A stretch of DNA of 64,000 nucleotides from a virus. Taxonomy: Duplodnaviria; Caudoviricetes. Each line of letters begins with the position of its first letter. Position 1 is the first letter of the stretch. A program made the translations under genes and the position numbers. Location: the IMG/VR virus record IMGVR_UViG_2513237213_000006, positions 8,894 through 72,893 of that record. One strand, given 5' to 3'. Of the stretch, positions 8,720 through 63,358 are shown piece after piece. The notes beneath the pieces are model-generated. The model did no database searches. It had not been told where the DNA came from and saw nothing but the letters and a program-made list of their open reading frames with translations.

Positions 8720-9291
8720 ACTGCTATCTGACGGAACAGGAGTTATTGCCGTATCAGAACATCATGGATGAACTCACGATGGAAGATGCGCAAATGGCTT
8801 CAAGTCTGATTGACGGTTATTTAGGACGGTCTTTCGCTTTATCGCAGTTCACAGACCGCATTAAATTGCGGAAGGGCAGAGGAAAACTCAGTCATTCGCC
8901 TGTGGCGAGTGTAGACAAGGTGGTGGGAGTTTCCCGCTCCATGTTTGGCAAGGTGAAGTCCGAAATGTCCCCTGAAGTGATTGATCTTGATCCCGAAATG
9001 GATGGTTATTTCACGCTCGAGAATGATTCAACAGACCTGACGGCAATGGTATTCAACACAGTTCCCGAAATGCTGCTTGTTACCTATACCAGCGGTTTTG
9101 CTGAGTATCCTCAACGACTGAAAGACGCTTGCGGGATGCTTGCTTGCAACATTCGTCAGGCAAAATCCTTCGCTGGGGCAAAGCAATTAACCTCTTTGGA
9201 CTTTCAGGTGCTTATGACGGATGATAGCTTCTTTACATCTGACATAAAACTGCTTTTGAAAGGGCTGAGTTACGATGTTCGCAATGTTTAA
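8716..9291 (+). CDS. Head-tail connector/adaptor
   Basis: 'YLTEQE...ASSLIDGYLGR...YTSGF...LKDAC' connector pattern; position. Confidence 0.7.
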   Translation: MNCYLTEQELLPYQNIMDELTMEDAQMASSLIDGYLGRSFALSQFTDRIKLRKGRGKLSHSPVASVDKVVGVSRSMFGKVKSEMSPEVIDLDPEMDGYFTLENDSTDLTAMVFNTVPEMLLVTYTSGFAEYPQRLKDACGMLACNIRQAKSFAGAKQLTSLDFQVLMTDDSFFTSDIKLLLKGLSYDVRNV

Positions 9292-11771: not shown

Positions 11772-12137
11772 ATGACTGATAATTTTATTAAATGCCGCGA
11801 TGGCAAAGACCGTGAAATTTTTCCGGCACTGATTAAAGACCGCAAGCGCATCCAACACTTTATTGTAAAGTTCCGTACCGATATGGCTATTCTTAATCTG
11901 CTGTCCCCTGACCTCGCAAAAGTGGCAGAGATTGGAGATTTTGAAGCAGCTTCGGCTTTCTCCGATGAGCCATATGACGCAATGATGGAAATGCTGGTAA
12001 TGGCGTTTGGCAATAAATACACCGCAGAGCAGCTGGAGGAATTTGTCGATGTGGCAATGGTTCCCAAAATCTTTGATGTATTCTTTGCTATCAGCGGCTA
12101 CAAAGATACAAAAAAAAAGACCAGCAAGAGCAAGTAA
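11772..12137 (+). CDS. Tail assembly chaperone (G-like)
   Basis: Between tube and tape measure; ends at a slippery A-run. Confidence 0.8.
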   Translation: MTDNFIKCRDGKDREIFPALIKDRKRIQHFIVKFRTDMAILNLLSPDLAKVAEIGDFEAASAFSDEPYDAMMEMLVMAFGNKYTAEQLEEFVDVAMVPKIFDVFFAISGYKDTKKKTSKSK

Positions 12138-12349
12138 GCTGGGACGAGCTGGTCGCAAGTATCGTAAAAAACACCAGTATGACTGTAAAAGATATAGGCG
12201 AAATGAGCTACCCTGAACTTGAGGGGCTTATGGACGGCATGGCCACCAACGCTAAAAAGGAAGAAGCCTACCTGAAGGGCGAGGAAGAAATCACTGAGAA
12301 TGGTGACGCTAATGACTTCATGCAGTTTATGATGAACGGCGGGATGTAA
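12110..12349 (+). CDS. -1 frameshift extension of the tail chaperone (G-T-like; DQQEQVSWDEL...MMNGGM*)
   Basis: A9G run at 12110-12119 contains A-AAA-AAG; the -1 frame is open to TAA 12347-12349. Confidence 0.8.
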   Translation, partial: KKKDQQEQVSWDELVASIVKNTSMTVKDIGEMSYPELEGLMDGMATNAKKEEAYLKGEEEITENGDANDFMQFMMNGGM

Positions 12350-42621: not shown

Positions 42622-43509
42622 TCAGTCCTTTTCTCCTGCATAATATCCGTAAGCATTTGCAAATACCGCTGTCATTTCGTCCAGTGGTTTATATGCAGTA
42701 TCTTTAAAGTGGGGGGCAATGAAAGAGGTGCCACCGCCGACGATGTAAAGAGAGTCCATCAGTTCGAGATTCCAATGGTTAATTCTGAGATTGTTCTTGA
42801 TAGTCTTTGCCATTCTCTCAAAGGCTTTGTCAGCCTCCTCGGGTACTTTGTCAATGTATAACTTCGCTTCATAGCTCTCAATATCATTGTAGCCGACATT
42901 TTCAAGAGCTTTCACAATATCCCGATAAGCATTGATAACGCCTTTCTCTAAGCTGCCGCTGTTCTCTGGGACGTAAGTGCCGCGCTTGAAGTAAGCAAAA
43001 TCGACGGTTTTCTGTCCAATGTCAACGATGCCAATCACTTTTCTTTTGATGTCCTTATCGTCTTTGGCAATCAGTTTGTAGACAGCTTCCGACTGGGCAT
43101 ATACGGAGATTTTCTTGATGTCAACGGAGCACTTCTTGCCATTATAGGACACTTCATACTTGCCTTTTAGCTTCGTTAGAGCGTCTTTCATGGCCTTGTA
43201 ATCGCTAATGGGTAGTCCAACCGCAACCGAATCGGAGAAGCTCTCTGTGTCCGTCATAGCACAGATAGCAGTCAACATGAAAATCTTGTGACGTAACATA
43301 TCAGTACGGTCAAATGGAGCTTCGCCGCCACGGTTCAAGGCGGTCATACCAACATGGTACTTAACACCGTCCAATTCAAGCAGCTGATCGTCCGGATCAG
43401 TAGTGGGAATGTAATCCTCCGATGCTTCCATGTAAACAGACGGGAAAGCCGTAACCTCCTCGCCGTCATACACCTTCACATTACCAAATCCAACATCGAT
43501 ACTAAGCAT
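42622..43509 (-). CDS. parM: ParM/StbA actin-like segregation ATPase
   Basis: Actin motifs 'IDVGFGNVK', 'QSEA', 'VDIGQKTVD', 'VGGGT'. Confidence 0.9.
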   Translation of the reverse strand: MLSIDVGFGNVKVYDGEEVTAFPSVYMEASEDYIPTTDPDDQLLELDGVKYHVGMTALNRGGEAPFDRTDMLRHKIFMLTAICAMTDTESFSDSVAVGLPISDYKAMKDALTKLKGKYEVSYNGKKCSVDIKKISVYAQSEAVYKLIAKDDKDIKRKVIGIVDIGQKTVDFAYFKRGTYVPENSGSLEKGVINAYRDIVKALENVGYNDIESYEAKLYIDKVPEEADKAFERMAKTIKNNLRINHWNLELMDSLYIVGGGTSFIAPHFKDTAYKPLDEMTAVFANAYGYYAGEKD

Positions 43510-61460: not shown

Positions 61461-62204
61461 TCATACCTCCTGTATCTTGTCTGTTATCTTGAACACATCG
61501 ACCACCAGTTCCTTCTCGTTACGGTCATCTATATAGCATAGCACATATTTGCGGCTGACGGTAGCGGTCAACAGGACTCCTGGCTTGCCGTTTTCATACC
61601 TTGACTTGAACCACTCGGCCTTTTCTCTGTTGTCTGTCCAGCTGAGTCCATAACGCTCTCTCCCCGGCGATACGCCCCTGTATATGGTAATGGTGTCGGG
61701 CAGGTTGTTGTAGTATTCGAGATCCGCGGGTTCCATCAGGTGCTTCTTCGATGCGCTTCGGAAAAAATTGATTGCCTCTTTACGGCTTACGTTTATGTCT
61801 TGGTTCGGGTCTTCCTCGTCCAGCCAGCATTGCTTCAGATATTTTGCATAGTCCTTCTCGCTCATGTACTCACGGCAGAGCTTGAACCATGTCATTTTAT
61901 ACGGTCTGTTGATTAAGAGGTACAGATGGCCAACGTCGCTCCTGTCAATCAGCTCCATCATAAACTTGCGGTAAACCTTGTAGCCATCGGGGGTGGTTAA
62001 ATCCAACACTTCCCCGGTCTGTGGGTTCATGGAAATAGTGGAGGTGGTGAAGGGGTGAGAGCATATTCCCAGCCCCGGTAGGGCTTTGTTTTCTTCGATT
62101 GGCACTGCGTTAAACAGCAGTTTTGTTGTATGGCGTATTTCTTCAAGGTTGGTTTTCAAAATCTTATCCTCACTCTTCAAAATATTTACAGATACCTTTT
62201 TCAC
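61461..62204 (-). CDS. ADP-ribosyltransferase-like protein (R-S-E signature)
   Basis: 'TIYRG', 'GLSWT', 'RNEKELVV' in the canonical order. Confidence 0.6.
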   Translation of the reverse strand: MKKVSVNILKSEDKILKTNLEEIRHTTKLLFNAVPIEENKALPGLGICSHPFTTSTISMNPQTGEVLDLTTPDGYKVYRKFMMELIDRSDVGHLYLLINRPYKMTWFKLCREYMSEKDYAKYLKQCWLDEEDPNQDINVSRKEAINFFRSASKKHLMEPADLEYYNNLPDTITIYRGVSPGRERYGLSWTDNREKAEWFKSRYENGKPGVLLTATVSRKYVLCYIDDRNEKELVVDVFKITDKIQEV

Positions 62205-62352
62205 CTAATTCGATTGCAACATCCATGTCCTCGGTAGCCACATTGGGATTGTGACATTCCTCTACGTTTACAAGAGTACAACCTCCACCAAAAGAGGGGT
62301 CATAATCTCCTCCAAATGCTACGGCGTGTTTGCAGTTTTCACAAGTGTTCAT
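62170..62352 (-). CDS. Small Cys-rich protein
   Basis: AAGGAG SD; 'CENCKH...C...C...CKYF'. Confidence 0.65.
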   Translation of the reverse strand: MNTCENCKHAVAFGGDYDPSFGGGCTLVNVEECHNPNVATEDMDVAIELGEKGICKYFEE

Positions 62353-62367
62353 TTTTATATCTCCTTA

Positions 62368-62396
62368 TTTACAAATAATCTGAAAAGTATTATAAT
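62368..62396 (+). promoter_or_regulatory. Promoter P1 of the repeat-mimic cassette
   Basis: TTTACA-N17-TATAAT. Confidence 0.7.
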
Positions 62397-62411
62397 CTTA
62401 TATGTAGACAG

Positions 62412-62442
62412 GTATTCGCCCCGCATTGGCGGGGATGTATCA
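62412..62442 (+). CRISPR. Solitary type I-E-like repeat
   Basis: GTATTCG-CCCCGC-ATTG-GCGGGG-ATGTATCA; same stem and 8-nt handle layout as E. coli GAGTTCCCCGCGCCAGCGGGGATAAACCG. Confidence 0.6.
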
Positions 62443-62527
62443 GAAAATCAAATTTTATAATTTGAGAGCTGTGTAATATTTAAGGTCAGCCTGTCTGCGA
62501 TTGTAATTCCCTAAATATTCCTCGCTA

Positions 62528-62536
62528 TGGTATGAT
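62528..62536 (+). promoter_or_regulatory. Extended -10 promoter P2
   Basis: TG-G-TATGAT, 27 nt upstream of the first I-F repeat. Confidence 0.5.
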
Positions 62537-62562
62537 GGGGGTTACAAAGCAGGTCAGCCGCA

Positions 62563-62639
62563 GTTTACCGCTGAATAAGTGGCTTAGAAAGTATAAGCGG
62601 CCTAGAACGACCTGTATGTTTACCGCCGAATAGGCGGCT
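62563..62639 (+). CRISPR. Type I-F-like mini-array (28-nt repeat, 27-nt spacer, 22-nt repeat)
   Basis: GTTTACCGCTGAATAAGTGGCTTAGAAA and GTTTACCGCCGAATAGGCGGCT; 20/28 and 18/22 identical to GTTCACTGCCGTATAGGCAGCTAAGAAA, with compensatory stem changes. Confidence 0.85.
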
Positions 62640-62714
62640 GTCAGGCTTCGGCCTGTGGATTGAAACACTTTATTTTTCTATTAAGGAAAAGGAAAAAGTC
62701 CCCCGCAAGGGGGC
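62640..62714 (+). CRISPR. Type I-C-like repeat, 31-nt spacer and GTC-led hairpin
   Basis: GT-CAGGC-TTCG-GCCTG-TGGATTGAAAC carries the exact 11-nt I-C handle; spacer is followed by GTCCCCCGCAAGGGGGC. Confidence 0.75.
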
Positions 62715-62720
62715 TTTTTC
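62697..62720. terminator. Bidirectional terminator
   Basis: CCCCC-GCAA-GGGGG flanked by A- and T-runs. Confidence 0.8.
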
Positions 62721-62726
62721 GTGTTT

Positions 62727-63020
62727 TTATTCTTCCACTTCGCCCCATATGGCCTCATATTCTTCGACCGTCATAGCGTTTTCTGCCCAGCGTTTTGCTT
62801 CATCCTCCGTGATAGGCTCAATGGCTTCATCATAATACGGTGTATTGGCACCGCCGTTCCGATGCAGGAAGAACTCGCCTGTTTTCTTCAGATACAGAGT
62901 GCTTTCCTGATAGTTCATATCGTTGCAAGCGATAATGTCGCGCCCATTGATATTGTCTTTGTGTCCCAGTTCTTTTGCGGTTTCAGTGTCATATTTCTTG
63001 CCGCCGATGATTTTCTTCAT
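62727..63020 (-). CDS. Small acidic phage protein (MKKIIGGKKYDTETAKEL...)
   Basis: AAGGAG SD; acidic 97 aa. Confidence 0.8.
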   Translation of the reverse strand: MKKIIGGKKYDTETAKELGHKDNINGRDIIACNDMNYQESTLYLKKTGEFFLHRNGGANTPYYDEAIEPITEDEAKRWAENAMTVEEYEAIWGEVEE

Positions 63021-63022
63021 GG

Positions 63023-63358
63023 TCACTGCTCCTTTTTCTTTCGTTCCAAACACTTTCTGATCCTCAGCGCGTTGAGAGTGGGGGAGTCGCTTCTATACTC
63101 GCCCTTACTGTATGGAATATAGTTGTTTGCCAGTTTGGTTGATATTCCCAGTCGTTCTGCTGCCTGTTCTATACTCAATCCCTGTTGCATAAGTTTCGTC
63201 AGTTCGTCGGTTCGCTCATAACGAACTGCACCTTCGGTTATAAGGATTTTTCGCACTTTGCCAAAGCTGAGACCGCTTTTTCGGGCAACCTCTTTGATAG
63301 ACTCGCTGGCCTTGTACTCCCTAACTATCGCTTTTATATTCGCCATACCTGTACACAC
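63023..63358 (-). CDS. Tandem HTH protein
   Basis: 'SIKEVARKSGLSFGKVRKIL' and 'LSIEQAAERLGISTKLANNY'. Confidence 0.75.
   Translation of the reverse strand: MCTGMANIKAIVREYKASESIKEVARKSGLSFGKVRKILITEGAVRYERTDELTKLMQQGLSIEQAAERLGISTKLANNYIPYSKGEYRSDSPTLNALRIRKCLERKKKEQ

Follow-up and report, generated by a model that had tools for sequence, protein, structure and literature searches.

A phage cassette of guide RNA look-alikes from four CRISPR types, a candidate multi-type RNA anti-CRISPR

Why would a tailed phage keep, in a non-coding gap of its genome, a row of sequences that resemble the guide RNAs of several CRISPR types? The question is raised by 64,000 nt of viral DNA (Duplodnaviria; Caudoviricetes), positions 8,894 to 72,893 of IMG/VR record IMGVR_UViG_2513237213_000006; this whole stretch, the last 64 kb of a 72.9-kb contig, is called the window below, and all phage positions refer to it. 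At 62368-62720 its plus strand carries a cassette of about 350 nt of non-coding DNA holding look-alikes of type I-E, II-C, I-F and I-C guide RNAs: five units of four CRISPR types are joined between one promoter and one terminator. The cassette is probably a multi-type array of phage anti-CRISPR RNAs that resemble CRISPR RNAs (crRNAs), of the kinds known as Racr, Cracr and vscaRNA, and at least two of its units seem made to direct host Cas proteins against the host's CRISPR loci. We infer transcription, processing, binding and repression by the cassette from its sequence.

Layout of the cassette

The cassette occupies a non-coding gap (62353-62726) between two minus-strand open reading frames (ORFs) of 60 and 97 codons. 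It opens with the putative promoter P1 (62368-62396, TTTACA-17-TATAAT), which diverges from the 60-residue gene and reaches 11/12 in a consensus scan. The I-E-like repeat mimic follows (62412-62442): it begins with GTATTCG, has a CCCCGC/GCGGGG stem (62419-62424 and 62429-62434) around the loop ATTG, and ends in the 8-nt handle-like sequence ATGTATCA. Behind it stand a spacer-like stretch (62443-62474) and a guide-like stretch (62475-62498), the latter immediately 5' of the 38-nt type II-C repeat mimic GATTGTAATTCCCTAAATATTCCTCGCTATGGTATGAT (62499-62536), whose 3' end forms the extended -10 element TGgTATGAT (62528-62536). An arm that runs from GGGGGTTACAA to GCAGGTCAGCC (62537-62561) pairs back onto 62489-62511 and closes a long hairpin around this element (inverted repeat I8); the predicted fold of -27 kcal/mol has a z-score of -1.8, below significance, and the hairpin might serve as an operator or be cut by RNase III. 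The I-F part consists of repeat mimic 1, GTTTACCGCTGAATAAGTGGCTTAGAAA (62563-62590), whose stem includes one G-U pair and whose handle is CTTAGAAA, a 27-nt spacer-like sequence (62591-62617), and a truncated repeat 2 (62618-62639; repeat family D1), a CCGCC/GGCGG hairpin that lacks a handle and is followed by CT. The I-C repeat mimic GTCAGGCTTCGGCCTGTGGATTGAAAC (62640-62666) has a 5-bp stem, a UUCG loop and an 11-nt handle with the 3' end GTGGATTGAAAC; it leads into a 31-nt spacer-like sequence beginning ACTTTATTTTTCTATTAAGG (62667-62697). The terminator (GTC, a CCCCC/GGGGG hairpin and a T run, 62698-62719) is the sole plus-strand terminator-like site that a terminator scan finds in the gap, and its hairpin is probably also the 3' hairpin of the I-C crRNA-like RNA.

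Folding predicts a hairpin for every unit. The Rfam model CRISPR-DR4 scores I-F unit 1 at 30.1 bits (E 2.9e-4), against 34.7 bits for genuine host repeats; the truncated unit 2 scores 19.6 bits, its stem is identical to that of the host I-F repeat, and we read it as the 3' hairpin of the I-F crRNA-like RNA. The I-E and I-C units were assigned by comparison with the repeats of the host genus. A chance origin of the I-F, I-C and II-C units is ruled out, and the I-E unit is the least secure of the four types. The chain is not a bona fide CRISPR array: its two I-F units share 86% identity over 22 nt, its spacers measure 27 and 31 nt, repeats of other types stand in between, and the contig has no cas genes, with no match to Cas1, Cas6f, Cse1, Csd1 or Cas9 RuvC_III in profile searches.

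An initial annotation, made from the letters of the window, had placed two promoters, I-E-like, I-F and I-C repeats, two spacers and a terminator on the plus strand of a region free of cas genes. Sequence, Rfam, folding and the promoter and terminator scans bear out every listed element at its coordinates, and the absence of cas genes from the window extends to Cas markers on the contig. Its count of three subtypes has to be corrected to four, the fourth being II-C, since the stretch described as promoter P2 matches II-C repeats of the genus; the extended -10 is present, but the stretch as a whole (62499-62536) is foremost a repeat mimic. The annotation also overlooked the match between the I-F spacer and the repeat of the host.

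Fits of the units to host CRISPR loci

To determine which CRISPR types the host genus carries, we ran marker-domain searches on 24 species-representative genomes. Type I-F (marker Cas6f) is present in 11 of them, type I-E (Cse1) in four, type I-C (Csd1/Cas8c) in three and type II-C (Cas9 RuvC_III) in two. As all four types occur in the genus, the cassette mirrors the CRISPR types of the genus and not those of one host cell.

The I-C unit is best understood from the I-C loci of two of these genomes. In G214 the gap between cas3 and cas5 holds a solitary unit (L074:10250-10345), composed of a degenerate I-C repeat, a spacer beginning ATTTTGTTTTTCTATTAAGAC and a terminator, and transcribed away from cas5; the arrangement in G215 is the same (L075:10668-10765). 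In type I effector complexes every sixth base of the crRNA is flipped out and unpaired, which leaves the others as pairing positions. Both solitary spacers fit a TTC-flanked site just upstream of their own cas5 at 15/15 pairing positions, and the mismatches of the G214 spacer fall at positions 6, 12 and 18. CreR, the Cas autoregulator, is built in this way, as a solitary unit with such a target. The phage I-C spacer fits the same two TTC sites at 14/15 and is identical to the G215 site over positions 1-11, whereas the next best TTC site in the two loci reaches 10-11/15; among 2000 shuffled spacers, 16 reached 13/15 anywhere. The phage handle is identical to those of the genus I-C repeats and CreR units, and the phage unit shares with the CreR-like units of G214 and G215 the handle, the first 18 spacer nucleotides and the TTC-flanked site. 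It differs from them in standing on a phage and outside cas loci, in its 27-nt repeat (32 nt in the host), in its shorter stem and in being joined to units of other types. These likenesses mark the phage I-C unit as a viral copy of CreR, the host regulator.

The host itself appears to be a Selenomonas ruminantium-like rumen bacterium: its proteins fall into 90%-identity clusters whose named members are S. ruminantium, and its TonB-dependent receptors are consistent with a diderm Negativicute. It has one CRISPR-Cas system, of type I-F, in an intact locus with the order cas1, cas2/3, an array of 36 repeats (GTGTTCCGCCGTATAGGCGGCTTAGAAA) and then genes ending in cas6f, which are taken as csy1-4 (Pfam confirms Cas1, Cas2/3 and Cas6f only). 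The host genome contains no I-C or I-E array and no match to Cse1, Csd1 or the Cas9 RuvC_III domain; there is no solitary I-F unit in its I-F locus, and none of the array spacers matches the phage contig. Spacer 5 of this array (C1:1013714-1015844) aligns with the 285-kb replicon C2 of the host genome (C2:226871-226893) at 22/23 bases, a possible partial self-target.

The I-F spacer of the cassette fits the repeats of this array. Its nucleotides 1-18 (GTATAAGCGGCCTAGAAC) align with the 3' part of the host repeat, directly after an internal CC (CCGCC, followed by GTATAGGCGGCTTAGAAA). With CC as the protospacer-adjacent motif (PAM), all 15 non-flipped positions match and the mismatches lie only at 6, 12 and 18, a placement that random positioning would give 1 time in 816. 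CC-flanked 15/15 sites number exactly 36 genome-wide, and they are the 36 host repeats; 40 shuffled spacers yielded zero sites of at least 14/15 in the host genome. The fit is to the array repeats and to no promoter proper; 7 nt separate the end of the terminal repeat from the predicted -35 of the csy promoter downstream. None of the family's natural I-F repeats has the spacer's base at position 12 or 18. The spacer fits the most frequent repeat of G000, G210, G220 and G226 perfectly; against the most frequent I-F repeat of the other genomes it has one seed mismatch (position 2), and some of these genomes also hold GTATA-loop repeats. The phage would spare its own DNA: I-F unit 1 is flanked by a CT PAM, unit 2 mismatches at position 2 and departs from the spacer beyond position 12, and the spacer's own DNA is preceded by AA. 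Another stretch that resembles the I-F spacer (22/27), within a prephenate-dehydrogenase-like gene (C1:1093224), has no CC PAM and was judged a chance occurrence. Tentatively, the I-F unit may be a guide RNA of the phage whose target is the CRISPR repeat, loading Csy on all 36 repeats and on the repeat abutting the csy promoter, and so silencing pre-crRNA and csy transcription. Repeat targeting is a new proposal and a candidate new class of target.

The II-C mimic came to light in a family-wide DNA search with the cassette, which found arrays of 66-nt period at query positions 142-180. The II-C loci of G221 and G210, both of the same genus, comprise cas9 with a trans-activating CRISPR RNA (tracrRNA) gene immediately upstream of it, cas1, and an array with the repeat GTTGTAATTCCCTATTAAACCTCGCTATGGTACAAT. 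The greater part of either array reads N (L085:9580-10405 in G221 and L086:9423-10055 in G210). The phage stretch matches the G221/G210 repeat over its full length (29/36 positions by eye) and also resembles array repeats of the family genomes G180, G188 and G193. Like the G221 and G210 repeats, it ends in an extended -10 (TGnTAYRAT). Neisseria II-C repeats hold internal promoters of the extended -10 kind, which makes P2 plausible as a promoter. The predicted duplex of the mimic with the anti-repeat of the G221 tracrRNA has -38.8 kcal/mol, compared with -42.5 kcal/mol for the native repeat, while shuffled mimics average -11.1 +/- 2.8 kcal/mol and none of 500 is as good. We also considered the II-C unit as a tracrRNA-like gene on the minus strand (alignment score 44.5 against 29.5), and rejected it: that strand has no promoter, nexus hairpin or terminator. 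A 14-nt exact match, GTCAGCCTGTCTGC, which lies 5' of the mimic and again in an amidase gene neighbouring the II-C locus of G180 (L088:586-605) and at C1:1879474 of the host, was set aside as chance; such recurrence is commoner than the chance expectation, and since it extends to a coding region of the host, the identity is probably an effect of codon usage.

The I-E hairpin is predicted at -15.6 kcal/mol (z -2.3). Its unit has the layout of the genus I-E repeat GTATGCCCCACGCATGTGGGGATGAACCG: a GTAT start, a 6-bp stem, a 4-nt loop and an ATG-A-C tail. One candidate target of its spacer, a 13/15 site at the cse1 start of G205 and G219, was rejected, having no I-E PAM and a seed mismatch. Independently of the phage, the I-E locus of G205 carries a CreR-like element (L083:3915-4011), namely a partial repeat with a spacer beginning TTGTTTTTCTTTAAG and an AAG-flanked target between the unit and cse1.

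Relatives and neighbouring genes

Related cassettes were reached through the 97-residue protein encoded beside the cassette. Two metagenome contigs, L089 and L090, encode a homologue 63% identical to it, and carry on one strand a promoter followed by two I-F units, the first a repeat that scores 35.5 bits in Rfam (above the gathering score), each with its own spacer (24 and 29 nt), and then an I-C repeat, a spacer ACTTTAATTTTCTGTTACC and a terminator. The first of their I-F spacers reaches 15/15, with a CC PAM, at the csy promoter of the same-genus genome G213, immediately next to TTGACA; the second reaches 14/15 within the csy operon of G213, G214 and G215. This chain and its spacer fits indicate that mixed I-F/I-C arrays exist in a second lineage and follow the same pairing rule. 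Among 80 further metagenome loci with the 97-residue family, L232 has a lone I-C unit whose spacer is identical to that of the window over 16 nt, and L272 a different I-C unit, also alone; I-F-like motifs in the 80 loci show no excess over the shuffled background. The terminator stem-loop of L089 and L232, GCTCCCTTCGGGGAGC, nearly equals the stem-loop of the G214 I-C repeat. A Logan contig (SRR29904083), taken to be the same phage, encodes an identical 97-residue protein in the same gene order with a gap of 375 nt, and contig L072 (GCA_024712465.1), with the neighbour homologue P0003, has only 63 nt upstream of the gene. The sole IMG/VR relative of the neighbouring 247-residue protein, L010 (55% identity), is without the cassette; at L010:7265-7331 it carries a type II hammerhead ribozyme (41.4 bits, above the Rfam gathering score).

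Several short matches were discarded. Family-wide BLAST matches to the promoter, the I-E stem, the spacer ends and the I-F/I-C junction (L022/23, L031/32, L042/43, L045/46 and L047) lie in coding regions. A pattern scan of genome contigs returned only chance matches in AT-rich genomes, the pattern being too loose. IMG/VR pattern matches for the I-C handle with its spacer and for the 3' part of the II-C mimic are coding regions or promoters, with the exception of L051 (IMGVR_UViG_3300045988_027597), where positions 11990-12224 are a true viral I-C mini-array of three full repeats (GTCGCTCCCTTCACGGGGAGCGTGGATTGAAAT). The second L051 spacer starts with ATTTTGTTTTT, the seed of the G214 CreR, so this is probably a same-type Cracr array.

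The 97-residue protein (62727-63020, minus strand) has no assigned function; it has 639 homologues, mostly viral, and no Pfam or PHROG match. Upstream of it lies a double helix-turn-helix (HTH) protein (63023-63346, minus strand; Pfam HTH_28, HTH_58 and HTH_23), a candidate Aca-like regulator, and on the left of the gap stands the Cys-rich 60-residue ORF (62170-62352, minus strand). Genes of the 97-residue family adjoin crRNA-like units in four phage lineages (the window, L089/L090, L232 and L272), and the protein is a candidate partner of the cassette: an anti-CRISPR (Acr) protein, or a regulator together with the upstream double-HTH gene. The contig also encodes a terminase, a portal and a tape measure protein, its own DNA polymerase, a primase-helicase and a ParB-like partition protein (phrog_691; 42622-43509, minus strand), and has nothing in common with the nine other contigs of the 3.63-Mb genome. 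Phage genes, a partition protein and replication genes of its own on a separate replicon point to a tailed phage kept as a plasmid.

Competing explanations and known RNA anti-CRISPRs

Under the multi-type explanation, the array would be transcribed from P1, and internally from the promoter in the II-C mimic, up to the single terminator. Cas6e, tracrRNA with RNase III and Cas9, Cas6f or Cas5c, whichever is present, would then release and load the matching unit; the predicted Cas-dependent cuts are at 62434, 62582, 62637 and 62655. The I-C unit, as a Cracr, would direct the I-C Cascade to the promoter of cas5-cas8c-cas7 and silence that promoter with no DNA cut. The I-F unit would form a complete, short crRNA of 55 nt (handle, 27-nt spacer and 3' hairpin) and load Csy; paired over 18 nt with every repeat of the host array, it would park Csy on the array and on the terminal repeat by the csy promoter, blocking pre-crRNA and csy transcription and using up Csy. 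Cas2/3 would not be recruited, given the mismatches at the flipped positions 6, 12 and 18 and the lack of pairing beyond 18 nt. The II-C unit would pair with host tracrRNA as a viral scaRNA or a decoy while doubling as a promoter, and the I-E unit would act as a decoy, or as a guide whose target lies outside the sampled loci.

A number of observations weigh against this explanation. Since the host has only type I-F, three of the four unit types have no partner in this cell. Rfam matches neither the I-E nor the I-C unit; the I-E handle agrees with the genus handle at 5/8 positions only, and the I-E spacer finds no site above chance in 15 I-E loci (4 of the genus and 11 of the family). The II-C guide (62475-62498) has no match near the cas9 or tracrRNA promoters of four II-C loci (L085-L088). 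As for the I-F spacer, its A at position 6 is found as a natural variant of the repeat (G008), so only two of its three mismatches are phage-specific; the spacer could be a decayed partial repeat, and stable binding of Csy and repression from an 18-nt partial match on repeat DNA is only proposed. The whole cassette, finally, has no match among INPHARED phages and PLSDB plasmids, nor in IMG/VR by junction or spacer patterns.

Some of these points would suit a cassette of pure decoys of the Racr type, in which the units soak up Cas6, Cas7, Cas5 or tracrRNA, the spacers guide nothing, and the fits to host loci are by-products of descent from CreR genes and repeats. Solitary I-F, I-C and I-E repeat units have been validated as inhibitors (PMC10651486), no target could be detected for the I-E and II-C units, and the I-F spacer resembles a partial repeat. 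Pure decoys nevertheless seem unlikely: the I-C spacer keeps its 14/15 fit to the cas promoter site while the phage lineages vary elsewhere, the I-F mismatches are confined to the flipped-out positions 6, 12 and 18, and in L089 the I-F spacers have CC-flanked fits in the csy promoter and operon. We are rather doubtful, too, of a cassette of two types only, I-F and I-C, with the I-E hairpin as a 5' stabilising stem and the II-C stretch as a promoter or operator of fortuitous likeness. Such a cassette would be in keeping with the weak I-E similarity and its missing Rfam match, with the extended -10 that lies within an inverted repeat and might belong to an operator, and with the related L089 cassette, which holds I-F and I-C units only. 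Yet the II-C mimic matches the genus repeat over its full length and not just at the -10, its predicted pairing with tracrRNA almost equals that of the native repeat, the I-E unit has the layout of the genus repeat, and I-E and II-C systems are both present in the genus.

The two other explanations fare worse. Decaying fragments of host CRISPR loci taken up by the phage would account for the truncated or degenerate repeats, but non-functional debris is very unlikely, given an ordered one-strand layout between a strong promoter and a terminator with units joined without waste, a non-random mismatch pattern, and counterparts in other lineages with conserved handles and seeds. A viral mini-CRISPR array for competition between phages, its spacers steering host Cas proteins to rival phages or plasmids, has precedent, as viral mini-arrays are known in this role (PMC11656645); it is extremely unlikely here, for no spacer matches phage or plasmid collections or the host's other replicons, and the spacers are short (27 and 31 nt) and fit host CRISPR-Cas DNA.

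Phage anti-CRISPR RNAs have been described in three kinds: Racr (PMC10651486), Cracr and its arrays (10.1101/2024.10.29.618823), and vsgRNA and vscaRNA (10.64898/2026.06.01.729453). Racrs are solitary repeat units acting as RNA anti-CRISPRs, for example RacrIF1 and RacrIC1 (Camara-Wilpert et al. 2023, PMC10651486); they bind Cas6 and Cas7 in aberrant subcomplexes and so inhibit interference. The cassette resembles them as a set of phage-borne repeat mimics with conserved stem-loop and handle, their own promoter, a place in an accessory or anti-defence island and a match to host subtypes. Closest to the Racr description are the I-E unit and I-F hairpin 2. Racrs are, however, defined as solitary and unlinked, whereas the cassette links five units of four types, at least two of them with host-targeted spacers; its units are not solitary, being linked to each other.

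Cracrs, in the preprint by Liu et al. (bioRxiv 10.1101/2024.10.29.618823), are viral crRNA-like regulators copied from host CreR or CreA, recognised by at least 9 PAM-proximal spacer bases that match a host cas (or creT) promoter and by a spacer resembling host CreR or CreA; the units of any one Cracr array are reported there to target one same subtype in every case. The I-C unit falls within this definition: with its terminator it stands on a phage contig without cas genes, it fits the cas promoter site at 14/15, and it aligns with the CreR-like units. The likeness to Cracr lies in a phage repeat-like unit with a short spacer and a terminator, and in a CreR-derived spacer that fits a cas promoter with a PAM (the I-C unit and the I-F units of L089); the likeness to Cracr arrays lies in units stacked in one transcript and in I-F spacers shorter than 32 nt. 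In contrast to the arrays described there, the cassette joins four types including class 2, and L089 mixes I-F with I-C, so neither targets one same subtype. The I-F spacer of the cassette fits the CRISPR repeat and not a cas or creT promoter, and a term search of the main text of the preprint found no repeat target.

Viral scaRNAs (vscaRNAs) and vsgRNAs act against Cas9 (Feussner et al., bioRxiv 10.64898/2026.06.01.729453); a term search of that preprint showed vsgRNAs reported together with protein Acrs, and found no co-encoding with type I RNA mimics. In common with vscaRNAs, the II-C unit has a guide and a repeat mimic on a phage, near small accessory genes and an HTH gene, and complementarity to the host tracrRNA anti-repeat, the latter as predicted by the duplex model. 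The truncated guide of a vscaRNA matches the cas9 promoter and is shared with a host scaRNA or tracr-L. The II-C unit departs from this in its guide, which matches no cas9 promoter in L085-L088, in its place among type I mimics, and in carrying a promoter. It is not a vsgRNA, in which crRNA-like and tracrRNA-like parts with nexus and terminal hairpins are fused, as there is no tracrRNA-like tail: only an 11-bp stem like that of repeat and anti-repeat is present, with no nexus hairpin, and the alignment with genus tracrRNA stops after the anti-repeat.

The core of the initial annotation, a small phage locus in which crRNA mimics of several subtypes are strung together as a candidate RNA anti-CRISPR, is strengthened by the types found in the genus, the second lineage and the spacer fits. 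Where it left open whether a decoy or a guide is released, the I-C and I-F units look guide-like, in the manner of Cracr regulators, and not like plain Racr decoys. The host proved to be S. ruminantium-like with I-F only, all mimicked types being present in its genus, and relatives proved partial: an I-F/I-F/I-C chain in L089/L090 and lone I-C units in L232 and L272. The annotation knew of no described cassette chaining three subtypes; related single-type arrays and viral guide RNAs are described in two preprints (10.1101/2024.10.29.618823 and 10.64898/2026.06.01.729453). Compared with these, four types across both CRISPR classes in one cassette and the candidate repeat target would appear to be new.

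RNA anti-CRISPRs (Racr, Cracr and vsgRNA) are a very recent subject and have so far been treated one CRISPR type at a time. CreR-like regulators are now documented in the I-C and I-E loci of Selenomonas. If repeat targeting by the I-F unit is true, it would mean a spacer-independent silencing of any I-F array, whatever its spacer content; it could serve as a small, programmable means of turning type I-F tools off, and would supply a search rule for new anti-CRISPR RNAs, namely spacers that match repeats with a mismatch at every sixth base. If the multi-type array is what it seems, one transcript of 350 nt over four types, from class 1 and class 2, would amount to a modular broad-spectrum RNA counter-defence by phages, in which a single transcript disarms the CRISPR types found across the host genus.

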